Source: Tagaea sp.
Lineage (GTDB): Bacteria; Pseudomonadota; Alphaproteobacteria; CACIAM-22H2
DNA: 64,000 bases
NCBI GenBank assembly: GCA_965279525.1
Contig: CBDIIB010000005.1
Location: forward strand, 320,001 to 384,000
Direction of reading: 5' to 3'
Part shown: positions 9,737 to 38,947 of the stretch, one piece after another
Position numbering within the stretch: the stretch's first letter is position 1
How the letters are laid out: every line of letters starts with the position of its first letter
Notes under the pieces: generated by a model
The model's database searches: none
What the model was told of the DNA's origin: nothing
The model's input: only the letters and a program-made list of their open reading frames with translations
Position numbers and translations under genes: made by a program

Positions 9737-10873
9737 ATGACGCAAGATAGATCGCAGTCCGGGTCATTGCCCGGTATCGGCTGGGCGGCCGCAGCAATCC
9801 GGGCTCTGCCTGCATATCGTGGACCCACGACATTCGCCGACTTTCCCGACCCGGCGACTCGGCCGCGACTCATCCACCTGAACGAGTCGCCCTATCCGCC
9901 TTCTCCGCGCGTCGGCGAGGCTATCGCCGCGGCGATGCATGACATCAACCGGTACCCCGACATTTTCGGCCGCCAGCTCTGCGCCGCGATCGCCGGATCG
10001 CTGGATCTACCGGCGGCGCACATCGTGCTGGGTTGCGGGAGCGACGAACTGATCCATTTCGCGACCGTCGTGGCACTCGCGGCAGGCGACGAGGCCGTCA
10101 TCCCTGCGCCGAGCTTTCCGCGCTACGCGCTCTCGACGAAGCTGGCCGGCGCAAGTGTCCGGCGTGTGCGTCTCGATGCCGGCGGTGCGTGCGATCCCGA
10201 CACGATCCTTTCAGCCATCGGTCCGCGCACGCGGCTTGTGGTCTGCTGCACGCCCAACCCGCCTTCCGGCGGGATGATGACCGCCGAAGCGCTGGCCGCG
10301 GTTGCGCGAGGCGTGCCGGACGACGTCTTGCTGCTCGTCGACGAGGCATATTACGAGTTCGGCCGGCACGCCGGGGGTCCCGACGCGCTTTCGATCCTGC
10401 GCGCACGCAAAGGGCCCTGGCTGTCGACGCGGACATTCTCGAAGGCCTATGCGTGCGCCGCGTTGCGTGTCGGCTACGCGATCTGCGGCGACGATGGCGT
10501 TGCCGAGGCGCTACGACGCGCGAAGCTCCAGTTCAACGTGCCGACACTCAGTCAGGCGGGGGCGCTGGCCGCCTTCGGCGATCAGGCTTACCTGCGCACG
10601 ATGCTCGACCGCATCTCTTCCGAACGCGACCGGCTTTCCAAGGGCCTCGCGCAGTTGGGCTTGCGCGTCCTGCCGACGGCGGCGAATTTCGTATCGTGCG
10701 TGCTGCCCGGGGCCGCCGCTCCGGCAATGGCGGCCCTCGAGAAGAAAGGCATTTTCGTTCGTGACTGGCGGGACCCCGAGCACCTGAACGAGCTTCGTAT
10801 CGGCGTCGGCACCTCCGACGACACAGGTGCCACACTCGCTGCGCTGGGCGACTATCTGCGGGGTGAGGCGTGA
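9737..10873 (+). CDS. PLP-dependent aminotransferase class I/II (HisC-like)
   Basis: LNESPY, GSDE, PNPP, DEAYYEF and RTFSKAY...LRVGY motifs. Confidence 0.88.
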   Translation: MTQDRSQSGSLPGIGWAAAAIRALPAYRGPTTFADFPDPATRPRLIHLNESPYPPSPRVGEAIAAAMHDINRYPDIFGRQLCAAIAGSLDLPAAHIVLGCGSDELIHFATVVALAAGDEAVIPAPSFPRYALSTKLAGASVRRVRLDAGGACDPDTILSAIGPRTRLVVCCTPNPPSGGMMTAEALAAVARGVPDDVLLLVDEAYYEFGRHAGGPDALSILRARKGPWLSTRTFSKAYACAALRVGYAICGDDGVAEALRRAKLQFNVPTLSQAGALAAFGDQAYLRTMLDRISSERDRLSKGLAQLGLRVLPTAANFVSCVLPGAAAPAMAALEKKGIFVRDWRDPEHLNELRIGVGTSDDTGATLAALGDYLRGEA

Positions 10874-11397
10874 GGAAGGCCGCACCGCAAGGCGAACGGA
10901 TCATCGCCAGCCTGAAAACGGCACGGGTCGAGTTCGTCGTCGCCTTGCCGGATATCGTGACGAGCGACGGATTGCTCTGGCCGCTGTCCCGGGATCCGGA
11001 TGTCCGGCTCGTGCGCATCTGCAAGGAAGACGAAGGCATCGCGATCTGCACGGGCCTCGCATTCGCCGGCCGCCGCTCGGTCCTGCTGATGCAGCAGACG
11101 GGTCTGCTCGATTCGATCAACGCGCTTCGCGCGGTCGGCGTCGAGTACGAGCAGCCGGTCGTCATGCTGGTCGGCCTGCAGGGCAAGGAGCCCGGAATCG
11201 CCCCTGCGGATTCGGCCAAGGTATCGGTGCGGATCGTCGTACCGATACTCGACGCCATGGGCGTGACCCATCACGTGATCGAGAACGACGGCGACGAAGC
11301 GGCAATCGGTCCCGCGATCGAGACGGCTTACGACCGTTCCCGTCCCGTCTGCCTGCTGATCGGCCGGCCACCGGACGCACCGGCGGCACGGCCATGA
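10870..11397 (+). CDS. ThDP-dependent decarboxylase alpha subunit (sulfopyruvate decarboxylase ComD-like)
   Basis: KEDEGIAICTG and LMQQTGL..SINAL Pyr-domain motifs; translationally coupled to neighbours. Confidence 0.75.
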   Translation: MRKAAPQGERIIASLKTARVEFVVALPDIVTSDGLLWPLSRDPDVRLVRICKEDEGIAICTGLAFAGRRSVLLMQQTGLLDSINALRAVGVEYEQPVVMLVGLQGKEPGIAPADSAKVSVRIVVPILDAMGVTHHVIENDGDEAAIGPAIETAYDRSRPVCLLIGRPPDAPAARP

Positions 11398-11969
11398 TGA
11401 AGCGCGACGCCTGCCTGAAACTTCTCGCCCGCCATATCCGGGATGAGGCGATCGTCGCTACCTATCAGGCCGCATTCGACTGGATGGCGATCGCACCGCG
11501 CGATCTCAACTACCTTTCGATCGGTGCGATGGGCATCGCCTCGTCGCACGGCCTGGGCCTGGCACTCGGCCGGTCCGACCGGCGCGTCATCGTGCTCGAC
11601 GGCGACGGAAGCCTGCTGATGAATCTCGGCAGTCTCGCGACGGTCGCGGCAGCCAACCCTCGCAACTTCGTGCATCTTGTCTGCGTCAACGGCGTCTACG
11701 AGGCCAATGGCAGCCACCCGCTGCCGGCAAGCGACAGACTCGATTTTGCCGCCATCGCACGTGGCGCCGGGATCGCCAACGCCGGGACCATCGATACGCT
11801 CGACGCGTTCGAGGCGGCATTGCCGGAGATCCTCGGCGGCGAAGGTCCGATCTTCCGTGCGCTGCTTGTCGAAGCGGGCGAGCCAAGCCAGCAGGATTAC
11901 GCCTACATCCATGGTGCACAGACGCGCCAGCGCTTCAAGGACGCGTTCGGCAAGCCGCCGAAAAGCTAG
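11394..11969 (+). CDS. ThDP-dependent decarboxylase beta subunit (ComE-like)
   Basis: GAMG and DGDGSLLMNLGSL...NGVY ThDP-binding motif. Confidence 0.8.
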   Translation: MMKRDACLKLLARHIRDEAIVATYQAAFDWMAIAPRDLNYLSIGAMGIASSHGLGLALGRSDRRVIVLDGDGSLLMNLGSLATVAAANPRNFVHLVCVNGVYEANGSHPLPASDRLDFAAIARGAGIANAGTIDTLDAFEAALPEILGGEGPIFRALLVEAGEPSQQDYAYIHGAQTRQRFKDAFGKPPKS

Positions 11970-12886
11970 ACCTTGCCCTGCGCTTCGGCGAACAGCCATG
12001 TGCGGAATGCCGCGATCTTCGGCGTGGCCAGCGCGCGCGGCGGGCAGACGAAATAGTGCGCGTAGCCGCTCGGGATCGAGATGTCGAACGGGCGCACGAG
12101 CCGGCCGGCGGCCAGGTCGTCGATCACGAGCGGCGTGCGGCCGAGCGCCACGCCCAACCCCTCGATCGCCGCCTGGATCGACATGTTCGACTGGCCGAAC
12201 CGCCGACCCTTCGAGATGTCGACGCCTGTCGCCGCTGCGGCATCGAGCCAGCTCTTCCAGCCCGGCGTGTTGCCGTCAAGCGTGAGGATGTCGTCATGCA
12301 GCAGCGGCACGTTGGCAAGGTCGCCCGGCACGCGCAGTGCCTTGGGGCCCTTCATGAGCCGCGGCGCGCAGACGGGGAACATCTCTTCGTCGAGGATCTT
12401 CTCGACATGCAGGCCCGGATACCGGCCGGTGCCATAGCGGATCGCCACGTCGGCTTCGCCTGCCGAGAAATCAGCGATCTGTCCCGTGGTAGCGATCGAC
12501 AGTTCGATGTGCGGATGGCGCTCGTCGAAGCGGATCAGTCTGGGAAACAGCCACTTCACCGCAAAGCCGGGCAGCGTCGAAACCGTCAGGCGCGGCCCCG
12601 TGTCGGTCTTGGTCAATTCGCGGATCGCATCGGCGACGACGCCAAGCCCGTCCCGCACGGCGCTTGCAAGCGCCTCGCCCTTGACCGTCAGCGTGATGCG
12701 CCGTGGCTCACGATGGAAAAGCTCGAAGCCGAGCTGGTTTTCGAGGCTGTGGATCTGGTGGCTGATGGCGCTCTGGGTAAGACCCAGTTCATCGGCGGCC
12801 ATCGTGAAGCTCTTGAGGCGTGCCGCTGCCTCAAAAGCGCGCAGCGCCGAGATCGGCGGCAAATGACGCAGGGGGGAGGTACCCAT
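11966..12886 (-). CDS. LysR-family regulator, GcvA-like
   Basis: LPPISALRAFEAAARLKSFTMAADELGLTQSAISHQI HTH. Confidence 0.9.
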   Translation of the reverse strand: MGTSPLRHLPPISALRAFEAAARLKSFTMAADELGLTQSAISHQIHSLENQLGFELFHREPRRITLTVKGEALASAVRDGLGVVADAIRELTKTDTGPRLTVSTLPGFAVKWLFPRLIRFDERHPHIELSIATTGQIADFSAGEADVAIRYGTGRYPGLHVEKILDEEMFPVCAPRLMKGPKALRVPGDLANVPLLHDDILTLDGNTPGWKSWLDAAAATGVDISKGRRFGQSNMSIQAAIEGLGVALGRTPLVIDDLAAGRLVRPFDISIPSGYAHYFVCPPRALATPKIAAFRTWLFAEAQGKV

Positions 12887-12899
12887 GAAATCGGCTCAC
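12885..12899. promoter_or_regulatory. Putative LysR operator in the divergent promoter region
   Basis: ATGA-N7-TCAC overlapping the regulator's start codon, a typical position for an LTTR recognition site. Confidence 0.35.
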
Positions 12900-12977
12900 T
12901 TGAGGATTTAGGTATTTCCAAACAGAATGCCAATACCCGATCTTCTCACATGAACGAAACAGATGGAAGGGCCGCAG

Positions 12978-13961
12978 ATGGCCTACGCGGGCGCCAAGCA
13001 GATTGCAGTCGAGGAAATCCCGATCATCGATGTCGGCGATCTCGCGTCGGACGACCGCGAGAAGATCGATGCGGTCGGCGCGCAGATGCGCGAGGCCGCC
13101 GAGCGGATCGGCTTTTTCTATGTCCGCAATCACGGCATAGCACCGGCCCTGGTCGAACGCGTCTATGCGGCCAGTCGGGCCTTCTTCGCGCAACCGGATG
13201 CCGTCAAGCGGACGGTCACGATCAACGATCTCCATCGCGGATTCCTGTCGGTCGGCGGCGCGAAGATGTACAGCAGCGCCAAGATCGATCTGAAGGAGAG
13301 CTATCTCTGGGGCCTCGAGCTTGGCGACGACGATCCCGACGTCGCCGCCGGCAAGCCGCTGATGGGGCCGAACAACTGGCCGGCCGGAAGCCCCGAGACG
13401 CGGGCGGCGTTCTACGCCTACTACCTCGCGATCTGCGATTGCGGACAACGCCTGCTCAAGGGTCTTGCCGCCAGCCTCGGGCGCGATCCCTCCTTCTTCG
13501 CTGCCGCGTTCGCCAAACCGCTCGCGCGCGGTTCGGCGATCTACTATCCGCCGCAACCCCCGGATCTCGGCGAGACACAGTTCGGCGTGGCGCCTCACAC
13601 CGACTACGGTGGCCTGACGCTGCTGTCGCAGGATCAGGTCGGAGGGCTTCAGGTTCTCGCCAAGTCCGGTCAGTGGGTCACGGCGCATCCGGTTCCGGAC
13701 ACGCTGGTCGTCAATATCGGCGATCTCATGCATCGCTGGACGAACGCGCGCTTCAGCTCGAACCCGCATCGCGTGATCAACGCGTCGGGTCGCGAACGCT
13801 ATTCGATCGCCGTCTTCTTCGATCCGCATCCCGACACGGTCGTCGATCCGCGCGACCTGCTCGACGACAAGGCCGCCGCGAAATACCCGCCGATCGCGTG
13901 TGGCGAGTACATCGTCCAGCGCTTCGACAAGGCGTTCAAGTACCGGCAGGCGAAGTCGTGA
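12978..13961 (+). CDS. Isopenicillin N synthase-like 2OG-Fe(II) oxygenase
   Basis: IPIID, GFFYVRNHG, HTDYG and NIGD...HRV...RYSIAVF motifs. Confidence 0.9.
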   Translation: MAYAGAKQIAVEEIPIIDVGDLASDDREKIDAVGAQMREAAERIGFFYVRNHGIAPALVERVYAASRAFFAQPDAVKRTVTINDLHRGFLSVGGAKMYSSAKIDLKESYLWGLELGDDDPDVAAGKPLMGPNNWPAGSPETRAAFYAYYLAICDCGQRLLKGLAASLGRDPSFFAAAFAKPLARGSAIYYPPQPPDLGETQFGVAPHTDYGGLTLLSQDQVGGLQVLAKSGQWVTAHPVPDTLVVNIGDLMHRWTNARFSSNPHRVINASGRERYSIAVFFDPHPDTVVDPRDLLDDKAAAKYPPIACGEYIVQRFDKAFKYRQAKS

Positions 13962-28416: not shown

Positions 28417-28467
28417 CCGACGCGGCGGATTTGGATCCGGCGAACGATGGCCGGACGCCGGCATCCG

Positions 28468-28572
28468 GACAAAAAGAAAGGGCCGCGCCCGAAGGCACGG
28501 CCCAAGTTTAGGGAGGAAACGCCCACGAAACGGCCCGGAGGCCATTTCGAGCTGCGACAAATCAATGTCGCA
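28468..28572. repeat. Left att direct repeat (displaced sRNA copy, separated from native promoter)
   Basis: Identical to 38843-38947 (GACAAAAAGAAAGGGCCGCG...AAATCAATGTCGCA). Confidence 0.95.
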
Positions 28573-29053: not shown

Positions 29054-29584
29054 ATGACGTCAATCCGCACGATAGCTCTAGTCATTTTCGGGCTGTTTAT
29101 TGGCGCCGCAAGTCCTTCTGGGCTCGCGTCCGAACCCTTGCCTAAGGGTTTCTTTGAGCTTCGAAATCTGGAGTTTTCTACATCGTTTCAGGATGAAACC
29201 GGGCGACCGGTATCTTTAGAAAGTTTTCGAGGAAGAGTTGTGGTTCTGAATTTATGGGCAACATGGTGCGCGCCCTGTATCAAAGAGATGCCATCTCTAG
29301 ATCGGCTCTCGAAAGTACTCCCTGCCGATAAATTCGCGGTCGTAGCAGTGAGTCAAGACAATGCCGGTGTCCTCGTAGCGAAGCCTTTTTTGGCTAAACT
29401 TGGCGTGATGATGGTCAATTCCTATTTTGATCCAAGGGGCCGTGTATCACGGGACCTCAGCGCAAGAGGGCTTCCCACAACCGTCATTGTTAGCAGCAAG
29501 GGGACGTTAATTTCGCGCCTCGAAGGCGCGATTGAATGGGACGCGCAAGAGGTGGTTTCGTACCTTAAGTCGCTTACTCATTAG
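29054..29584 (+). CDS. TlpA/ResA-family extracytoplasmic thioredoxin
   Basis: N-terminal hydrophobic anchor/signal; LNLWATWCAPCIKEMPSL and GLPTT motifs. Confidence 0.92.
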   Translation: MTSIRTIALVIFGLFIGAASPSGLASEPLPKGFFELRNLEFSTSFQDETGRPVSLESFRGRVVVLNLWATWCAPCIKEMPSLDRLSKVLPADKFAVVAVSQDNAGVLVAKPFLAKLGVMMVNSYFDPRGRVSRDLSARGLPTTVIVSSKGTLISRLEGAIEWDAQEVVSYLKSLTH

Positions 29585-29647
29585 CCTTGCCCTCCTCTGT
29601 TGTTTCCCTTAAAGTTTTTTTAAGTTAATTTTGTGTGGGGGAACGCC

Positions 29648-29995
29648 ATGAAACTATTGGTTGGTTTTGTCTTTGCGGTATTCGCACTTTTTGCGGTCGC
29701 AAACCCTCCTGCCAATGCATCTGACGGATGCGTTGTGATAAAGTCTTCGCAATTGATGGCAGCCGAAATCAATGAATTGGGCTCGCCAGACGCAAAGTTC
29801 GCCATCGCCTCTTTGGAATCTTTCGCCAATGGAGCTGTTGAGAAGATTGCCAAAGAATCATCGGTCGGCAATCAAGGAAGCACCATTCAACTCGCTCAAA
29901 GCCGTAGCACCGGCTGCTCTTCCGGTTGCTCCAACGGGTGCTCCACCGGTTGCTCTGTCGGTTGTTCCGTTGGCTGTTCAGTAGGTTGTCGATAG
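29648..29995 (+). CDS. Secreted Cys-rich repeat peptide (115 aa) with C-terminal (xGCS)7-type tail; candidate precursor or metal-binding peptide
   Basis: GGGGGA RBS; Sec-type signal ending ANA; tail TGCSSGCSNGCSTGCSVGCSVGCSVGCR with synonymously diverged codons. Confidence 0.85.
   Translation: MKLLVGFVFAVFALFAVANPPANASDGCVVIKSSQLMAAEINELGSPDAKFAIASLESFANGAVEKIAKESSVGNQGSTIQLAQSRSTGCSSGCSNGCSTGCSVGCSVGCSVGCR
29909..29992 (+). repeat. Degenerate 12-bp tandem repeat x7 encoding xGCS
   Basis: accggctgctct tccggttgctcc aacgggtgctcc accggttgctct gtcggttgttcc gttggctgttca gtaggttgtcga. Confidence 0.9.
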
Positions 29996-30027
29996 TTGAT
30001 CCAGTGTCGTTAGTTTCTCAGTAGCTA

Positions 30028-32706
30028 TTGGCGAGTTTATCGACACATGCACGGCCCGGTTGGCAAGACCGGGCCGTTTGCATTTGGGCCGTAGCACTCA
30101 CAGCCACCTCGGCTTTTGCTATAGTTGATGCCAGTGAAGTTGCCGCACATTCCGCCGCGCTAGTTGGATTTCTTTTCCCGTCCAGGACTAGCCAAATTAG
30201 GCGAGTGGTATTGGTGCTCTTGGCAACAATTGGTTGGATGTTCGGTCCAACGTCTCTAATTGCTACAACTACGGGAATGCTTCTGATCGTTGCTATGGCA
30301 GATACAGCCATCGCCTTTGCATTTGCGATATGCACATGCGCATTTCTAGGTCACCACTTTCAGTCAATCGAGAGAATTTCGGGGCTAACTTTTCATATAG
30401 GCTCTTCGCCGTTTATTATTCTTCCTGCAATTGTCGCCTGCACATCTCTCAATTGGCGAATTGGATGGAGTGGCGTTCTCACTATCTTACTAGCCGCTAC
30501 AACTGTGCTCATCGGTATAAATTTGTCGGCAGCAATATGGATCAATCACAACACTTTGACATCTCAATATTTCCGACTGGCGGCTTCCGTGCTGCCGATT
30601 GCTATCGCAGCGCTCGCAGTTAGTTCGGGATCTACGCAATGCTTAAAAATGCCTTCTGTCTTTTGGATGCTCGGCGGCGTGACTATTGGCGCACTAGTCA
30701 CATTTGCTGCGCCCCAGTTTCCAGTCTCCCAGATCGTTTTTGACGAGGCTCATGGTCGCTGGGAAACCGTCAGGGCAACATTCGGTCCTAACGATTTCGG
30801 ACGCAGCGCAAACTACACATATAGCCTTCTAGAAAGGCATGCTGATCGTCTCGTAGGTTCTACTACCCTGGACAATGAGGGGGATTCGTTACCCCCCCAT
30901 GCCCTATTTGTATTGAAAATGCCCACAACGGCACTTTCAGATGAATTTTCCAGCCGACTTTATCAATGGATTTCCGATGGAGGGCGCCTATTGGTAGTGG
31001 CCGACCACACTGACCTCTACGACACTACTCAGAACTTGAATTTGTTTTTGCAGCTACTAGGCGTCAGCATAAATTCGGACGCGGTGTTTGATACGCGCGG
31101 AATGCCGACCGTCCCTGAGACGGAACAGTTCGCCTTTTTTCTGGGCCGCATAGACGCTTACGCAAAACCGCTTCCTTGGCAGACGGGTGCAAGCTTCGGA
31201 AGATTGCCCGCGAACGCCGTGGAGTTAGCGTCCTATGGGCCATCTTTCTCGGAGCCCGGCGACTATTCTCGCCCGAATCGCTTTGGCCCCTTCTTGCCAC
31301 GCTCCACTCTTCGCTTCACAAAACATACGGCAGTTGCGGCCTTCTCTGTTGGGGCGGGAGCAGTTGCCATCATTCTTGACAGCACGCCGTGGTCAAATTT
31401 TTCGATCTTTATTGACCAATATACGCGACTATTCCGATCTATCGTTTTCGCACTAAGCAATCCTATCGCAATAAAAATCTGGGGGTGGGCCGCACTGCTT
31501 CTGCCAATTGCGGGCATAGCTGTTCTGGTTTGGAGAACACGCACGATACTTGTTCTAGGTGGCGCCGTATTAGGTCTTGTCGTTGGTGCAGCTAGCCAGA
31601 TTGGTGCCCTATCTCATTTAATGCCGGTTGAGGGGCGGGATTTTGGATTGAAAGTTCAACTAGGAAACTCCGCTCGACTGGAGTTCTTGAAGCAACTTGT
31701 TGGGTCAGGAGACCGAAATTTTTCGCGAATTATTTCTGCCATGGCGAAGTACGGCCTTAATCCTTCGGCAGAGCTCCCAGGCACTGATGCTCAAACAATT
31801 TCTACCGCGAAGCGATGGCTTTTTATTCAGCCAGAGTTTCGCACTCTTCCAAATATTCAAGTCGTCCTGCGTCACCTCAAGGCTGGTGGCGATCTCACAA
31901 TTCTGTTTGGCCCAGAACAAGGGCAGAGCATGGAAATCGAAACTTGGCTGCGTTCGTTAGGGCTTAATTTGCGAAAGACTGTGGCGTTAGCTGTAGCAGA
32001 AGATGCGTATCTCGATCAGGGTGGATTGCTTACTCGCAGAGGACCATCGATCATCCGCGACGTACGGCCGGTCACTTCTGCTCTTCCAACCAGTATTCTG
32101 AAGCCTCACGATGGTGATCAGTTCTTTCAGTCTTATACATTGCGGCCGACTACGCTGCCCCGCACTAGTGGCCGGCTAACAGTAGGGTTCTCGGCCGATC
32201 AATTCTCAGATGATGCAGTAGGCGAAGTATGGGAGGGGACGAATCCTGCATCTATCGGGCGGTTGCGCGAACGGCAACTTGCATCCGCATTATTGGGGGA
32301 GGATTTCCCCGCACCATTCCCCAGCGAACTTGCCTATGTGCAGGCAAAAAAAGAGGGTAAAGCGCTTACTTCGTATCTAGTAATGGAGGATGGACGCACA
32401 ATCATTACGGGAAAATTCGAATCAGTTGAGAACACTACTGAAAATGTAGCTGCTATAAATCCGTCCGCCAATCCGGTGGGATATTTGCAGGACCTGCGCT
32501 CACGGGCACTGTCATTCGTTGACTTAAATTGCCCTCTAAGCGGCAAGGTCACATTCTGCGAGCGTCGAATGCTCGGCCCCGATATGACTGAATGGATGGT
32601 TTCCTGGGCGGCAGATATGAACGGAGCGCCGGTGGCGCTGGAGCTACTGCACGAGCGGCGGTTTTCGGGCCTCGGTAGCACGGTCAATGTTGTCTTTGGC
32701 GAGTAG
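30028..32706 (+). CDS. Large polytopic membrane protein with a DUF4350/class-I-GATase-like soluble domain (hypothetical)
   Basis: About 7-8 N-terminal hydrophobic segments, then IVFDEAHGRWE, GGRLLVVADHTD and IILDSTPWSN motifs, two more TMs and a C-terminal domain; start codon uncertain. Confidence 0.75.
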   Translation: MASLSTHARPGWQDRAVCIWAVALTATSAFAIVDASEVAAHSAALVGFLFPSRTSQIRRVVLVLLATIGWMFGPTSLIATTTGMLLIVAMADTAIAFAFAICTCAFLGHHFQSIERISGLTFHIGSSPFIILPAIVACTSLNWRIGWSGVLTILLAATTVLIGINLSAAIWINHNTLTSQYFRLAASVLPIAIAALAVSSGSTQCLKMPSVFWMLGGVTIGALVTFAAPQFPVSQIVFDEAHGRWETVRATFGPNDFGRSANYTYSLLERHADRLVGSTTLDNEGDSLPPHALFVLKMPTTALSDEFSSRLYQWISDGGRLLVVADHTDLYDTTQNLNLFLQLLGVSINSDAVFDTRGMPTVPETEQFAFFLGRIDAYAKPLPWQTGASFGRLPANAVELASYGPSFSEPGDYSRPNRFGPFLPRSTLRFTKHTAVAAFSVGAGAVAIILDSTPWSNFSIFIDQYTRLFRSIVFALSNPIAIKIWGWAALLLPIAGIAVLVWRTRTILVLGGAVLGLVVGAASQIGALSHLMPVEGRDFGLKVQLGNSARLEFLKQLVGSGDRNFSRIISAMAKYGLNPSAELPGTDAQTISTAKRWLFIQPEFRTLPNIQVVLRHLKAGGDLTILFGPEQGQSMEIETWLRSLGLNLRKTVALAVAEDAYLDQGGLLTRRGPSIIRDVRPVTSALPTSILKPHDGDQFFQSYTLRPTTLPRTSGRLTVGFSADQFSDDAVGEVWEGTNPASIGRLRERQLASALLGEDFPAPFPSELAYVQAKKEGKALTSYLVMEDGRTIITGKFESVENTTENVAAINPSANPVGYLQDLRSRALSFVDLNCPLSGKVTFCERRMLGPDMTEWMVSWAADMNGAPVALELLHERRFSGLGSTVNVVFGE

Positions 32707-34636
32707 CCGCCGAAGCGCCGCCTTCGCGGCGGTTGCGTCCGCCGCAGCGCATGCCTTTCCATTGGCCGCGCCATGGAGTCTGGTACTCCTTTTAGTGCCA
32801 TTTAGTGTTGGCCTGTTTGTTTTACGTAAGAGATCGAATCGCATCATTTGGCTGGTTCTTTGCACAAGCATTGCTGGCGCTGTTCTTGCCGGTATAGCTC
32901 CGGCACCAATTGCCATTGCATCTCTCTCCTTCACAGTATTGATATTTGTTGGCGCAGCTAGCGTCGGAGCTGCGCTGCTACTACTCAACATGTCTGTGAT
33001 TGGTAGTGCTGAGATGATGCTCGCACAGACGCTTGATATGATCGGACTAGAAGCAGCTGCGCCAGCAATGTTGACAACGGCAGTCTTGGTGATCGCTCGA
33101 CCCTCCGCTATTTCCGCTGGGGTTTGTTTAGCGGCAGTCTCCGCAATAGCTGCTCTTGTTGCTGACAAAATCGCCTCTCACCCGTATGCATTAATGATCG
33201 CCGCAGCAGTTCCGGCCACCATCTTTTCTGTTGTCGTATGTTTTGTTTCCGAGTCTTCACCAAGAGCCCGCTCTCTCGTGTTTATTGCCATTGCTTTCGG
33301 CTTGCTACTGCCTTGGGCAGCTACTCCCCCGAGATCGTGGGGCGAGATATTTGTTCTATTGCCAGATGCATCGGACACATACGAGGCACAGTTCTTTAAG
33401 AACTATACCGACGCCCTCAGATTTGCAGGCATACGAGCGGAGAGGGTTACTCGACTAAACGACATACCATCAAGATCATTGGTACTCATGCCGTGGACAT
33501 CCGCAGATTTTAAATCTGCGGATGACAACGAGATGCTCAAAAGCATAGGGCAGCTAGCTCAAGGTCATCAATGGACCGTTATCGTAGGCGGGGAGCATAC
33601 CAACTTGGGCGGTGCGGCGGACCGGATAGAAGCCATGAGCGGAAAGCCTTTTCTGCGCCGAGACCTCACAGTGCCGCCGTACAATACTGATGACTCTGGT
33701 CCTTTACACGTCTCTGATCTTCGTGAGTGGCCGCATGGAAGTATTTTGAATCGCGGCGCAAGCGTCGAAATAATGTCGCTTCTCGATAAAGTGCTGTTAG
33801 CCGGAGACGGATGGTGGGCAGAGCCCGACTTGGGCGAATGGCTGTGGGTCGGTGACTATATTTGGCGTTCAGGAGAGCGCGCCGGCCGAATGGCCTTGGC
33901 AATCGCTTCAGATTCAGGCGGTGCCCGCTGGATCATTGTTGGCGACAATAGCTTTTTCCTAAGTAACCAAATTTACGCTGATCCACGTACTTTGCTTCGA
34001 TTGATTGAACTCGCCTCGCTTTGGCCTGCTCTTGTTAAAGACATTGCGATTGGATTTCTCGCTATAGCAGGTTGCTTGCTTATGCTTGCTCACGTCACGT
34101 TAGCCGAAGCTAGCATCACGATGTCTTCCGTCTTTTTTGTAGTTTCTGGCATCTATATATTTCTATTTCCAACACCAGAGAGCAGTAGGTGGAGGGATAC
34201 ATACGTTGACCAAATTGGATTTGATGAAAGAAATTTCAACCTGGCATTCACGGAGAGCCCGCTACTTACAAACAGTAGGCGCCTGATGCGATTGAAGGGT
34301 TCATTCACCGGTGAATTTGAAGTTCCTCACGGAAACGCAATTATCTTTTTGCACGTTGATGGAACGATGACGGCTGGCAAAGCACGACTTACTAACTGCC
34401 GCCGGCTAGGTGCGCTTGCGCTTGAAGAAGGGCCGTACCTGATGGACGCCCAAGCCTGCCGCGTTACAGGTGCGGATAGAATTTTGATTGGTACTCCAGA
34501 AGCTGCTGTCGCATTTTCGATTCAATACGGATTGTCTGAAGCAATTTTTATTCTGGACACCGTCTTTCTAGGGCAAAAGGCGCCATCGAGTAATGCGGAT
34601 TGGTTGATTCGGGAGATGGCGATTGAGAAACGATAA
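32687..34636 (+). CDS. Polytopic membrane protein, apparent paralogue of the upstream gene (hypothetical)
   Basis: Overlaps the upstream stop; N-terminal TM block, then VIVGGEHTNLGG and WIIVGDNSFFLSN motifs, two TMs and a C-terminal domain. Confidence 0.75.
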   Translation: MLSLASSRRSAAFAAVASAAAHAFPLAAPWSLVLLLVPFSVGLFVLRKRSNRIIWLVLCTSIAGAVLAGIAPAPIAIASLSFTVLIFVGAASVGAALLLLNMSVIGSAEMMLAQTLDMIGLEAAAPAMLTTAVLVIARPSAISAGVCLAAVSAIAALVADKIASHPYALMIAAAVPATIFSVVVCFVSESSPRARSLVFIAIAFGLLLPWAATPPRSWGEIFVLLPDASDTYEAQFFKNYTDALRFAGIRAERVTRLNDIPSRSLVLMPWTSADFKSADDNEMLKSIGQLAQGHQWTVIVGGEHTNLGGAADRIEAMSGKPFLRRDLTVPPYNTDDSGPLHVSDLREWPHGSILNRGASVEIMSLLDKVLLAGDGWWAEPDLGEWLWVGDYIWRSGERAGRMALAIASDSGGARWIIVGDNSFFLSNQIYADPRTLLRLIELASLWPALVKDIAIGFLAIAGCLLMLAHVTLAEASITMSSVFFVVSGIYIFLFPTPESSRWRDTYVDQIGFDERNFNLAFTESPLLTNSRRLMRLKGSFTGEFEVPHGNAIIFLHVDGTMTAGKARLTNCRRLGALALEEGPYLMDAQACRVTGADRILIGTPEAAVAFSIQYGLSEAIFILDTVFLGQKAPSSNADWLIREMAIEKR

Positions 34637-34646
34637 ATCGCCTACG

Positions 34647-35063
34647 ATGATTGGACTACTGCCAGGTGGCGTGCCTCAACGGGAACCGTACCCTTCGGAA
34701 GACGTGTTTTTTAAAAGAAATATGCACATCTCAGGATTGGCAGCCGAAGATAATTCGGTTGTTCTAAACCCGTACAGCAATCTCTCTCCGACAGAGCGTC
34801 GCTGCGTTGCACTTAACGAAGCCGCCAGAGTTGTTATGCGGCGAGACCCTGAGTTGCAGCCCATATTCGATCTCACACCCGAACAGCTTGCTTCCTTCCA
34901 GAGCTACGGTCCCTTAGATAGCGTCAGAGCTACCGTAGCAGCGCGAATTCTTTCAGGTGATCCTAGTGCGTTGAGACCGACCGTCGACCAAACTAAGTTT
35001 GTGAAGAAACTCGCCACCGCGATGGGCCTCAAGAAGCGTAAGGCGGCCCCTTCCCCTGGCTAG
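34647..35063 (+). CDS. Hypothetical protein (possibly phage-related)
   Basis: Open frame of ~138 aa with natural composition immediately after the membrane-protein genes. Confidence 0.6.
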   Translation: MIGLLPGGVPQREPYPSEDVFFKRNMHISGLAAEDNSVVLNPYSNLSPTERRCVALNEAARVVMRRDPELQPIFDLTPEQLASFQSYGPLDSVRATVAARILSGDPSALRPTVDQTKFVKKLATAMGLKKRKAAPSPG

Positions 35064-36086: not shown

Positions 36087-37532
36087 TCACACCAACTCCT
36101 TCCGATAGGCCCCCCGAAGGGGGTAATCATTCTTTCCATCCGAGATCATAAACAGACTGGCATCCATAAGATTGGATCCATCGATCATCTGCTTACCGTC
36201 ACGATCTGTGATCTTCAGGCTAATCAGTACCCCGAATCGTTCCTGGAACACTTGGACCATGACCCTCTGAAGCTCCTCAGAACGCTCCTCCGCAATGATG
36301 AAGCTGTCGTGGACCGGGAGTACGGGGATCCCTTCGTCTGCGAAGTGCAGCATGACCGTCTCTGCGAGCTGGCTCTCCCAGAACTGCATGGTCTTGCCTA
36401 CGCCCGTATGGAACAGGTCGCTCAGCGGAGCGAAGTGCAATTTGACCCTCTCGACGAACTCGCCCCGTGTGACGCCGAGTACTGTCTCGTCATAACCCTC
36501 TTCCAGGTCGAAGCTCTTGAGATGAGGTTGACGAACCCATCCCCTCTTATCGTTGATCAGGGCATTGAAGGTCTTCTTCACCCATATCCGAACGATTGGC
36601 GGGGCATCCGGGAACGCGTCGTACACATCGGCAGGAATTGGCATGCTCCGGGATGCGTAGAGCATGCTCGGGTGTAGGCCGACATAGTCCACTTCGACCG
36701 TCTGATACCCATCGATGGTCAGATATGGTCGGTACTCCTTAGGCATGTTCTGCCATGAGGATTGGAAGAATCGACCACCGCGCTGGAAGCTTGCATCGTT
36801 GAACTTGCGCACAAGAGTTCGCTTGCGTGGATCGAATGGTCGACGGAGCTTCGTGCCTATCATGCGCCGGTTGAGATCGATCAAATCGCCGGGCAAGAGA
36901 TCCATTGCAATCTTGGAGTCTCGGAGTACCGCGTTGATGGTCCCAATATTCGCCCGCTTCGCCTCTGTTTCAGGCGTCGGATCGAACTGGATCGGTTTCT
37001 TCATCGCGTCCCGAAGCTCGATATCCGCGTGCCAGTGGTCAACGTGCTCGATCTCATCTGGGGAGAAATCGGGAATTGCTACGATCCGCTCGATCAGGCT
37101 CGGCGTAGCTCGTATCTTCGTGTTGAAGTACATCGCGGCACTCGGCGCATACAATCCTTTCTTGGCAATCTCGATAAGCCCGGCAGTCCGCAGTCCTTCG
37201 TACGCTTGGATCATCGGGCGATAGGTTATCCCTCGCTGGGCATATCGACTGGTTGCCGCATATTTGCTCCGATTGAGATCGATGCCGACGGTGCACCCGG
37301 GCAGATTTTCATGCGCAAGAATCAGGTTCAGAAGGAGAGCGCGAAGAGCTGCAGTAAGGCGTTCAAGCTCCATCTTGGAGCGCTTGCGACGACCCGAAGC
37401 CGTGTCAATCTCAGTGGCGATCTGTGAGACGAGGACATCGAAGCCCTCGTTCTCAATCACGTAGCTGGGGTCAATCGGAACAGAAAGTATTTGGGACGGG
37501 CTGACTGCATCACTCAAGTTGCGATCCTTCAT
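36087..37532 (-). CDS. Stand-alone superfamily-A polymerase-like protein (PolA/T7-RNAP-type palm; TV-Pol-like)
   Basis: GGRFF..WQN, motif A VEVDYVGLHP, motif B-like KKTFNALIN, QFWES and motif C PVHDSFII; no exonuclease domain evident. Confidence 0.7.
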   Translation of the reverse strand: MKDRNLSDAVSPSQILSVPIDPSYVIENEGFDVLVSQIATEIDTASGRRKRSKMELERLTAALRALLLNLILAHENLPGCTVGIDLNRSKYAATSRYAQRGITYRPMIQAYEGLRTAGLIEIAKKGLYAPSAAMYFNTKIRATPSLIERIVAIPDFSPDEIEHVDHWHADIELRDAMKKPIQFDPTPETEAKRANIGTINAVLRDSKIAMDLLPGDLIDLNRRMIGTKLRRPFDPRKRTLVRKFNDASFQRGGRFFQSSWQNMPKEYRPYLTIDGYQTVEVDYVGLHPSMLYASRSMPIPADVYDAFPDAPPIVRIWVKKTFNALINDKRGWVRQPHLKSFDLEEGYDETVLGVTRGEFVERVKLHFAPLSDLFHTGVGKTMQFWESQLAETVMLHFADEGIPVLPVHDSFIIAEERSEELQRVMVQVFQERFGVLISLKITDRDGKQMIDGSNLMDASLFMISDGKNDYPLRGAYRKELV

Positions 37533-37770: not shown

Positions 37771-38793
37771 TCAGGGAACTGCATCCGGTGGTGACAGCAG
37801 TACCGGGCCAGATTCGGTAGCAACTTGCTTGGCCGATAGGCATGCGAGCTTCTTCGCAACATCTTCAGGCCGAAGATGCGTGTAGCGAAACAGCATGCGC
37901 GGATCCCGGTGCCCGGAGATCAGGGCGACTTCGGGGATGCTCAACCCGGCTTCGAAGAACCGGCTAACAGCCTCGTGGCGCAGGTCGTGAAAATGTAGAT
38001 CCTCGATCCCAGCTCGACGCACTGCGCGATACCACCTCATTTGGATTGCCCTCGGACTCCACTCGAATATGCGATGCCCCTCTCTGCACGGAAGGCTCTG
38101 AAGGATAGCTACGGCAACAGGAGTAAGCGGGATAGTTCGAGGGTAACCGTTCTTGGCTTCCCTAACGACGAGGAGACTAGAGGCTAGATCAATATCGGTC
38201 GGCTCAAGTCGGACAAGCTCGCCCCTTCGCAGGCCGGTCTCCAGCGCGAACAAGACAAGGCCATGGAACTTGGGATCGAGGGCCGCCAGCAATAGCCGCA
38301 TTTCCCCAGGCGCTATTCGCCGTGTCCGATGCCTGCCTGCCGCAGGCTTGCGAACCTGAATGAGGGCATCCGCCATCGGCATCGACCATTCGCGATGGGC
38401 ATACCGCAGAATTGTCTGCAGCAAACCAAGCTCCCGCCGGACAGTCTCGGTCGAACACGCAGCTAGGCGGCGATCACGATATTGGGCAAGGCAGGAGGCC
38501 GGAATCTGATGCATGGGAAGATGCATCCATTTTTCTCGCAGCATGACCGCGAGTAGCCCCACGCAATTCTCTTCGCGCCGCATCGAGACGGCAACTTCGG
38601 TTCGATAGCGTTCGACTACGTCGATCAAGGGTGGGGCAGTCAGAACCAAGGCCTCCCCGAGGTCGACCCGACGCTCGTGGAGCCGCGCCCATTGCTGGGC
38701 ATCCTGACGTGTTGAAAAGGTCTTGCTGAGCTTGTGTCCTGCGCGACGGACCTGAACCTGGTACATCGAGCCGCGACGACGAATGGTAGCCAT
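37771..38793 (-). CDS. Tyrosine recombinase/integrase with N-terminal arm-binding domain
   Basis: MATIRRRG..YQVQVRR N-terminus; catalytic TGLRRGEL (R), AKNG (K), HDLRH (H-x-x-R), SGH and RYTHL (Y). Confidence 0.93.
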   Translation of the reverse strand: MATIRRRGSMYQVQVRRAGHKLSKTFSTRQDAQQWARLHERRVDLGEALVLTAPPLIDVVERYRTEVAVSMRREENCVGLLAVMLREKWMHLPMHQIPASCLAQYRDRRLAACSTETVRRELGLLQTILRYAHREWSMPMADALIQVRKPAAGRHRTRRIAPGEMRLLLAALDPKFHGLVLFALETGLRRGELVRLEPTDIDLASSLLVVREAKNGYPRTIPLTPVAVAILQSLPCREGHRIFEWSPRAIQMRWYRAVRRAGIEDLHFHDLRHEAVSRFFEAGLSIPEVALISGHRDPRMLFRYTHLRPEDVAKKLACLSAKQVATESGPVLLSPPDAVP

Positions 38794-38795
38794 GC

Positions 38796-38821
38796 TGTGA
38801 CACCCGTGTGACACGCGTGAC
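38796..38821. repeat. Putative integrase arm-type sites (TGTGACA x2 at 11-bp period plus a partial GTGAC)
   Basis: ctgtgacacccgtgtgacacgcgtgacc between the integrase start and the right att repeat. Confidence 0.6.
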
Positions 38822-38845
38822 CAGCAACCGGGCTAACCCTTTGAC

Positions 38846-38947
38846 AAAAAGAAAGGGCCGCGCCCGAAGGCACGGCCCAAGTTTAGGGAGGAAACGCCCA
38901 CGAAACGGCCCGGAGGCCATTTCGAGCTGCGACAAATCAATGTCGCA
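38846..38947 (-). ncRNA. SuhB/MmgR (alpha-r8)-family small RNA, promoter-retaining copy; lies within the right att repeat 38843-38947
   Basis: Minus strand: hairpin CGAAATGGCC-TCCG-GGCCGTTTCG, UUUCCUCCCU decamer, ACTTGGGCCG terminator stem and U-tract; TTGTGCA heptamer just upstream. 5' end approximate. Confidence 0.8.

Follow-up and report, generated by a model that had tools for sequence, protein, structure and literature searches.

A recurrent gene set around a cysteine-repeat peptide

We analysed a 64,000-nt stretch of DNA from Tagaea sp. (contig CBDIIB010000005.1; the whole stretch is called the window below), in which a compact set of genes on the plus strand joins an exported cysteine-repeat peptide and a TlpA-like thioredoxin to two large membrane proteins. 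A preliminary description of this DNA had placed four co-oriented genes here, and the listing of open reading frames (ORFs) confirmed all of them. The first gene encodes a TlpA-like thiol:disulfide oxidoreductase of 176 aa (29054..29584) with a WCAPC motif, a hydrophobic N-terminus and matches to Redoxin/AhpC-TSA. It is followed by the gene of a 115-aa exported precursor peptide, which consists of a signal peptide and a cysteine tail (29648..29995). The two membrane proteins, named M1 (892 aa, TTG start, 30028..32706) and M2 (649 aa, 32687..34636), are encoded by genes that overlap by 20 nt. The public gene call for M1 is shorter (830 aa), yet conservation in homologues starts at about residue 13. 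The preliminary description had taken the four genes as the cargo; all four were present, but a co-oriented and facultative fifth gene, orf146 (34623..35063, plus strand, overlapping the end of M2 by 14 nt), and a conserved hairpin had been missed.

The gene set was found to recur. We gathered 14 loci from genomes and 71 from metagenomes, and counted a locus as related if tblastn matched M1 in it at E ≤ 1e-30 (48 loci), a criterion chosen to be independent of the features counted. Genes were counted with profiles made from first-pass hits, and only in loci with enough flanking DNA. Of the 43 related loci in which at least 350 nt precede M1, 42 had the peptide gene, and in the exception (L035) M1 was apparently truncated. 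M2 followed in 36 of 37 loci with at least 300 nt downstream (exception L020), and the TlpA-like gene was found in 20 of the 22 loci with full context. The fifth gene was less constant: of the 24 related loci that extend 1,200 nt or more beyond M2, 14 had it and ten did not. One more locus (L083), which has an M1 match of E 1e-12 on a 1.5-kb contig, has the peptide too and was left out of the counts. Because near-duplicate loci exist among those gathered (for example L002/L018 and L042/L043), these linkage counts are not all independent.

Gene order shifts among the loci, while membership stays. In four loci (L008, L037, L045 and L048) tlpA and orf146 lie after M2 on the opposite strand, still within the cassette; there orf146 stands directly upstream of tlpA on the same strand as tlpA, with an overlap between the two in L008, L045 and L048. 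In L032, tlpA follows M2 on the same strand. When the other ORFs were clustered, the only recurrent extras were recombinases and a Sel1-repeat protein, found in three loci each. The named hosts were Bradyrhizobium, a Hyphomicrobiaceae metagenome-assembled genome (MAG), Methylophilus, a Methylophilaceae genome, Nitrotoga, a Cryomorphaceae MAG and Magnetospirillum, so that the gene set spans phyla. Among proteins clustered at 90%, 161 relatives of M1 and 130 of M2 were found at E ≤ 0.001, all of them unnamed or labelled 'DUF4350 domain-containing'. The preliminary description had made its proposal depend on a recurring linkage of the membrane proteins with cysteine-repeat peptides and TlpA. This linkage was found in the homologues, and the distant relatives described below are linked with another cysteine-repeat protein.

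The peptide is built from a signal peptide (residues ~1-24) ending in a small-x-small cleavage motif, a segment of ~60 residues that includes a predicted docking segment (~37-78), an Arg-Ser junction, seven S-x-G-C units, and a terminal Arg. Its export, which had been proposed earlier, is supported by the signal sequence; if translation starts at the GTG at 29633, the peptide has 120 aa. Within the segment before the core, Asp48 is invariant and belongs to a conserved E-[IV]-x-G-[LM]-x-x-P-D motif. The core, (S-x-G-C)7-R, is encoded by a 12-nt tandem repeat (29906..29992, plus strand) and contains seven cysteines in six C-x3-C steps. The count of seven units agreed with the repeat first written as (xGCS)7, while the natural register proved to be (S-x-G-C)n flanked by Arg.

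This register was read from 46 peptides with 44 distinct tails and 340 units. Every one of the 44 tails was a pure period-4 array of 5-11 units, with 8 units commonest. Position 1 of the unit was Ser in 339 of 340 cases and position 3 was Gly in 332 of 340, while position 2 was variable and mostly Thr, Val or Ser. An Arg preceded the first unit in 40 of the 44 tails, and an Arg or Lys followed the last Cys in 39. From these sequences the core can be written as R-(S-x-G-C)n-R; the tail is rich in Cys, Gly and Ser, offers 5-11 thiols, and has no His. Since Ser and Gly are kept so strictly in each unit, the units would be read by a protein or held in one defined shape, rather than serve as mere spacers.

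Four or more consecutive C-x3-C steps occurred in only 3 of the 50,795 stop-free frames of at least 40 aa in this genome, and six steps only in this peptide. As such a run is rare in the genome and the gene set recurs across phyla, chance was excluded as its origin. The other two frames, with four or five steps (C4:1133964-1134770 and C4:1226800-1227090), are Arg/Pro-rich translations of high-GC DNA and probably not genes.

A GC-rich stem-loop with an 11-bp stem, terminator- or attenuator-like and followed by a T-rich stretch, lies behind the peptide gene at 30051..30077 (plus strand), inside codons 8-17 of M1. In each locus, the 100 nt that follow the stop codon of the peptide were folded and compared with 100 mononucleotide shuffles, and 36 of the 46 loci came out with z below -2 (median z -3.24). 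When such a structure stands behind a precursor gene, more of the precursor than of the downstream proteins is usually made. The hairpin fits such an excess here, with the peptide probably more abundant than M1 and M2, and it may act as an attenuator controlling the proportion of peptide to machine. A general scan of the window for promoters and terminators gave no more candidates than shuffled sequences.

The thioredoxin matched the Pfam families Redoxin (1.7e-16) and AhpC-TSA (3.5e-16), its WCAPC motif comprises Cys72 and Cys75, and the hydrophobic segment at residues 1-25 would be an N-terminal anchor or signal. This signal sequence agrees with the earlier claim of a reductase-type thioredoxin acting outside the cytoplasm. 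The best NCBIfam match was the rhizobial TlpA (NF047696, 2.9e-35), at 122 bits against a cut-off of 230. Judged by sequence, the protein has the features of the TlpA/ResA/CcmG type and is TlpA-like, but not a TlpA equivalog. A DsbD-family gene is present elsewhere in the genome, and its product can feed a TlpA-like thioredoxin. The product of orf146 has no hydrophobic segment and no signal peptide, and would therefore be the sole cytoplasmic member of the cassette. It falls within a larger unnamed family (243 matches, mostly of ~137 aa), and its nearest atlas clusters are unnamed viral ones with scores of 0.94 and 0.92. PHROGs contained no family for either the TlpA-like protein or orf146.

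The membrane proteins M1 and M2

M1 and M2 had been called paralogous in the preliminary description. That claim was overstated at the level of direct comparison, where BLASTP gave only E 0.15; comparison of profiles with hhalign joined the two with 90.4% probability (E 1.4e-6) in an alignment of 404 columns that spans the membrane bundle together with the first soluble domain, and both have a GIFT-fold middle domain. We therefore regard them, on profile comparison alone, as distant paralogues. AlphaFold models were built from alignments of 65 and 68 rows, with a predicted local distance difference test (pLDDT) of 91.3 and a predicted template modelling score (pTM) of 0.91 for M1, and 93.0 and 0.92 for M2. 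The predicted plan is common to both: about eight short-looped N-terminal helices, an alpha/beta domain, a two-helix hairpin, and a C-terminal domain. In M1, the GIFT/DUF4350 domain lies at ~232-478 and the transmembrane hairpin at 479-530, followed by the C-terminal domain with a predicted docking sheet at ~782-892. In M2, the corresponding parts are a GIFT-fold domain (217-450), a transmembrane hairpin (446-493) and a C-terminal beta domain.

In the predicted models, the alpha/beta domain of both proteins has the GIFT (GldG/IFT52) fold, which is GATase1-like. M1 passed the Pfam cut-off for DUF4350 (33.2 against 30.4 bits) and stayed below that for ABC_transp_aux (33.0 against 34.7 bits). To our knowledge, no biochemical function has been demonstrated for the GIFT fold in bacteria. 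The mean column identity was ~50% in each of the two alignments, and the only invariant cysteines were C835/C844 of M1 and C571/C591 of M2, all in the C-terminal soluble domains. Because the membrane helices hold no conserved cysteines, M1 and M2 are not DsbD-like. The loop of the M1 hairpin is basic, and this, together with the invariant C-terminal cysteine pairs and the exported partners, suggests that the large domains face the periplasm. It had been proposed that the membrane proteins might sense the peptide, which is unlikely because they lack an output domain and have hardly any cytoplasmic loops.

Across M1, M2 and the distant relatives, three positions only are invariant, namely the His-Thr of a [D/E]-H-T-[D/N] motif, which comes after the core strand RLLVV (320-324) of the GIFT fold, and the Asp of G-D-[ST]-[ST]. 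M1-type proteins additionally have F-D-E-x-H-G-x-W-E. The invariant patch may be a catalytic site, a metal-binding site or a binding surface.

Searches beyond the GIFT domain returned little. Against PDB sequences, the M1 profile found only IFT52 (E 0.0091) and the M2 profile nothing credible. Pfam at permissive E-values gave no consistent second family over all members of M1 or M2, nor did either protein match the ResB, CcsA or Ccm families of Pfam. Neither matched a characterised transporter in Pfam, NCBIfam or the PDB-sequence profiles, a match that the preliminary description had named as counting against its proposal. The structural matches from Foldseek and VIA-align were filled by the GIFT domain (M1 232-538, M2 217-501). 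In the atlas, residues 531-892 of M1 were nearest to GIFT/DUF4350 clusters (0.89-0.90), and a second GIFT-like domain in the C-terminal part of M1 is a lead only.

We modelled the complex of full-length M1 with the mature peptide (residues 25-115), using an own alignment for each chain and three controls. The docking score was 0.61 (0.63, 0.59 and 0.61 in single runs), while the best control reached 0.00. Of 157 solved complexes, 116 came up to this score mark, as did 2 of 215 mismatched pairs, a rough calibration since own alignments were used. The runs agreed in at least 55% of contacts, with a partner pLDDT of 51-53, and the confident contacts involved peptide residues 37-78. In the model, the peptide strand 49-54 pairs with the C-terminal sheet of M1 (841-892), and later peptide residues contact its first GIFT domain (244-263, 300 and 331-332). 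The model supports a tag-like recognition of the peptide by M1 but is no proof of it.

Distant relatives, island and neighbouring genes

The superfamily around M1 is much larger than the cassette: the M1 profile matched 878 clusters (50% identity) at E ≤ 1e-10, and 1,215 at the looser threshold of E ≤ 0.001. Most of the 36 loci in which the M1 match was weaker contained a tandem pair of ~800-aa DUF4350 membrane proteins. Among the 18 such pair loci with at least 1,400 nt upstream, 13 had an upstream gene with cysteine runs spaced by 4 or 5 and counting up to 63 Cys. These upstream proteins are signal-anchored, carry a short S-P-L-[YF] motif, and often have a GEVED domain after the cysteine run; examples among loci L055-L081 are L073:1944-3911 and L060:472-1623. 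Three of the remaining five loci (L065, L071 and L077) encode a protein of the same family with 19-27 irregularly spaced Cys.

In two Bacteroidetes loci, L012 and L014, there is only one M-like gene, and a protein of 246-266 aa encoded nearby has the S-P-L-[YF] motif and period-4 x-x-T-C repeats (L012:4934-5674 and L014:10100-10900). In L012, which comes from a MAG, the M-like GIFT gene is followed by TolC-, HlyD- and MacB/FtsX-like genes (9745-13695), an arrangement that hints at a tie of the family to export from the periplasm. The repeats of the distant relatives have Thr, not Gly, before Cys, and the docking motif of the window peptide (…S-P-D…) may be a diverged form of the S-P-L-[YF] tag. 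The subfamily of the window differs from these distant modules in its client, a short peptide with another tag and a strictly kept (S-x-G-C)n core, and in having its own TlpA-like reductase, a facultative fifth gene and carriage on mobile elements.

In the window, the gene set lies on a 10.4-kb element with a GC content of 50-55% against a background of 65-70%. Its borders are the two copies of a 105-nt perfect direct repeat (left 28468..28572, right 38843..38947). Each copy holds a full-scoring mmgR/suhB small RNA (sRNA; RF00519, 52 bits) on the minus strand, at 28465-28549 and at 38840-38924. The element also encodes a tyrosine integrase, assigned by family matches (37771..38814, minus strand). 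The repeat with the sRNA at both borders and the element's own integrase indicated that the element was inserted in the sRNA gene and duplicated its end; the mmgR/suhB-family sRNA gene is thus the attachment site of a tyrosine-integrase element. Further inside the island, a gene on the minus strand (36087..37532) encodes a 481-aa protein that matched phrog_4756, a family of unknown function, with E 5e-38. A homologue of this protein adjoins the cassette in the Bradyrhizobium locus (L004:15098-16480), suggesting a common element backbone. Among 61 related genomes, the one that contains the window was alone in having M1, and 0 of 20 genomes of the same genus had it. Four sequencing runs, all of one study, contain this DNA, and no RNA run was listed as containing it.

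NCBIfam held no family for the peptide, M1, M2, orf146 or the 481-aa island protein. PADLOC 2.0, run against six island proteins at E ≤ 0.01, returned 0 families, which leaves room for a novel defence role. The preliminary description had seen no radical S-adenosylmethionine (SAM) motif and no YcaO, LanC or MNIO gene, and this held in Pfam searches: no island ORF matched radical SAM, YcaO, LanB/C/M/KC/L or MNIO families. Partners of the ATP-binding cassette (ABC) transporter, MoxR, vWA or DUF58 kind were also missing, both from the island ORFs and from the recurrent neighbours.

The survey of flanking genes covered 110 ORFs in 33 related loci. In 13 of the 33 loci we found genes for an integrase, resolvase, relaxase, TraG, transposase or terminase. 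Confident defence genes flanked the cassette in six loci: PDC-S06 with PDC-S73 (L006), SIR2 (L023), a restriction-helicase (L029), AbiEi/AbiEii (L041), AIPR (L043) and PDC-S36 (L046). The cassette thus tends to lie in variable or defence islands. PrrC-like (PDC-S06) and nSTAND3 genes were seen among these defence neighbours.

Proposed handling of the peptide and its alternatives

Several known systems resemble parts of the cassette. TlpA acting with ScoI and CoxB, as well as ResA and CcmG, are membrane-tethered periplasmic thioredoxins with a WCxPC motif that keep the cysteines of an exported client reduced for attachment of a metal or cofactor, and System II of cytochrome c maturation uses two polytopic membrane proteins. 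The cassette peptide differs from the clients of TlpA/ScoI and cytochrome c maturation, having neither a CxxCH motif nor a Sco fold. From System II the cassette is set apart by M1 and M2, which lack any ResB, CcsA or Ccm match, and by a C-x3-C spacing with no His. SoxYZ is a periplasmic carrier with a cysteine on a flexible Gly-rich C-terminal arm, and has a dedicated periplasmic thioredoxin, SoxS or SoxW, for its activity. SoxY is a folded protein with a single cysteine and works together with the Sox enzymes, whereas the cassette peptides carry 5-11 cysteines on an unstructured tail and the cassette contains no Sox genes. Unlike the cysteine-rich peptides of radical SAM systems (SCIFF/ranthipeptide, sactipeptide), the window peptide has no adjacent radical SAM maturase.

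Like GldG and the DUF4350 proteins, M1 and M2 have a GIFT/GATase1-like fold that is predicted to face outward. GldG works with the GldA/GldF ABC transporter, and the archaeal DUF4350 family arCOG01314 with MoxR, vWA and DUF58 proteins, according to the available parts of PMC5898192 and PMC7226087, whereas the cassette has none of these partners, and M1 and M2 add a membrane domain of ~10 helices. In those parts, the GIFT/DUF4350 domain is not tied to cysteine-repeat clients. Closer on the side of the client are the bufferins and oxazolins, ribosomally synthesised and post-translationally modified peptides (RiPPs) that are modified by MNIO enzymes. According to the available part of PMC12452194, they have Sec signal peptides and repeated cysteine motifs, as the cassette precursor does, vary in size between short peptides and long proteins holding dozens of Cys, and are proposed to chelate copper in the periplasm. 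They need a cytoplasmic MNIO with its DUF2063 partner, neither of which is present in the island or the genome here; the partners in the cassette are instead two membrane proteins with GIFT domains predicted to face outward and a periplasmic thioredoxin. The text of PMC12452194 mentions neither thioredoxin nor DUF4350.

The reading we prefer is that the cassette forms an extracytoplasmic, mobile and self-contained machine that handles a cysteine-repeat client, to which we assign a probability of roughly 45%. The 115-aa precursor would be exported through its Sec-type signal peptide, as its sequence suggests. From conservation and the docking model, the conserved segment at ~44-54 around Asp48 would add a beta-strand to the C-terminal sheet of M1 and also touch the first GIFT domain, acting like a leader or recognition tag. 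M1 and M2 would form one complex, given their gene overlap, their paralogy and their linkage in all but one of the loci counted. The TlpA-type reductase, fed by the DsbD/CcdA of the host, would keep the 5-11 cysteines of the tail reduced in the oxidising periplasm, as the established role of its family implies. The complex would then act on the R-(S-x-G-C)n-R core.

For the product we favour, tentatively and as possible rather than probable, a thiol-dependent maturation that yields a thiol-rich peptide binding soft metals of the copper type, because of the analogy with bufferins and TlpA-ScoI, the composition of Cys, Gly and Ser, and the variable number of units. Such a maturation could consist in the loading of a metal-thiolate cluster or in a covalent modification, and the product might be released at the Arg-Ser junction. 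A wider and more doubtful idea is that GIFT-domain membrane pairs are a large class of ATP-independent extracytoplasmic maturases for proteins with evenly spaced cysteines. The window would then hold a minimal mobile version, in which the tag docks on M1, and the complex with the reductase alters the S-x-G-C units one by one, giving modified residues or small rings (for example by serial thioether, S-lipid or S-glycan linkage) or a defined metal-thiolate chain, resembling RiPP maturation but wholly periplasmic. Lgt-like lipid transfer onto lipobox-like units, a WWD-like haem site at a Trp-rich motif of M2, and serial lanthionine-type rings were considered as ideas only and set aside; the distant relatives have Thr in place of Gly before the cysteines of their repeats.

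Several results weigh against this machine or against its metal role. The TlpA-like gene was missing from 2 of the 22 full-context loci (L039 and L041), and a TlpA-profile match was found in only one of the 36 distant loci, where it was weak (L065). The cysteine tail was not placed with confidence in the complex model, and the interface showed no significant enrichment of residues conserved in at least 90% of sequences (13 of 42, where 10.3 would be expected from the periplasmic residues; p = 0.20). No catalytic domain was recognised in M1 or M2, and GIFT domains are regarded as non-catalytic binding or scaffold modules in the available parts of PMC7226087 and PMC5898192. Since the GIFT domain filled the fold searches, a known enzyme fold could still lie in the membrane bundles or the C-terminal domains. 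As for the metal role, none of the 110 flanking ORFs was recognisable as a metal-resistance gene, and the neighbours were mobile-element and phage-defence genes.

The evidence can also be read without any chemical change of the client. M1-M2 might be a platform for secretion or surface assembly that moves, anchors or assembles cysteine-repeat proteins in the envelope, a role of the kind proposed for GldG and the archaeal DUF4350 (arCOG01314) systems, with TlpA only stopping premature disulfides. In the distant relatives the clients are large proteins anchored in the membrane, whose cysteine stalk is followed by a folded GEVED domain, the single M-like gene of L012 stands directly before TolC-, HlyD- and MacB-type genes, and Makarova et al. 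2015 predicted a role in secretion or membrane remodelling for DUF4350 proteins (available part of PMC5898192). The proteobacterial cassette, however, comes without an outer-membrane or ATPase component or any further recurrent gene, its client is a ~90-aa peptide with no folded passenger, and the near-invariant Ser and Gly are hard to explain in a mere passenger, so we consider such a platform rather unlikely. The same strict residues are left without explanation if the peptide is a sacrificial thiol buffer of the periplasm, which traps oxidants or electrophiles and is then reduced again by the TlpA-like protein, while M1-M2 only tethers it near the membrane. A dedicated reductase-type thioredoxin of the Redoxin/AhpC-TSA superfamily, the probable excess of the peptide, and a thiol number varying between 5 and 11 units, as for a capacity function, would suit a buffer; two proteins of 892 and 649 aa with ~50% mean column identity are too costly as a tether, however, and the distant loci nearly all lack a TlpA-profile match, which makes a buffer very unlikely.

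Competition or defence concerns the physiology of the cassette and can be compatible with the handling of a client. The cassette would be a mobile 'moron' that encodes an antimicrobial peptide with processing and immunity through M1-M2, or that excludes phages at the envelope. This is suggested by the mobile contexts of the related loci, the integrase and attachment repeats of the island itself, the presence of M1 in a single related genome, and the defence genes beside six loci. The hairpin after the precursor gene, the leader-like tag and the Arg-flanked core resemble bacteriocin loci, and the nearest clusters of orf146 are viral. Neighbours are weak evidence, however, since mobile islands gather many kinds of cargo, no cassette protein matched a PADLOC model, the cassette has no dedicated exporter across the outer membrane, and its distant relatives are unlike toxin loci; we hold this role to be clearly unlikely. 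The last alternative, a classical cytoplasmic RiPP whose maturase is encoded elsewhere and acts before export, with M1 and M2 as unrelated neighbours or immunity proteins, finds a precedent in the MNIO-modified bufferins and oxazolins, where Sec-signal precursors with cysteine motifs can be modified first in the cytoplasm (available part of PMC12452194). It appears extremely improbable, because radical SAM, MNIO, YcaO and lanthipeptide enzymes were absent from the island and from the recurrent neighbours in 49 loci, and the genome (97% complete) gave no MNIO match (PF05114). The 110 flanking ORFs contained no LanB/C/M/KC/L or YcaO, and a single radical SAM match, ~5 kb off in L001 alone.

The preliminary description had not recognised the system as described, and we likewise found no account of this cassette in the searchable literature, whose coverage leaves out subscription-only journals. 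If the proposed machine exists, it would be a new bacterial route for handling peptides after export, with a recognition step like that of a RiPP leader, taking place in the periplasm on a GIFT-domain membrane complex. It would also give a superfamily of more than 1,000 sequence clusters its first client and its first testable assay. The compact five-gene module would then be one that crosses phyla on mobile elements, and its mobility implies a portable selective benefit, whether related to metal, redox, competition or phage.

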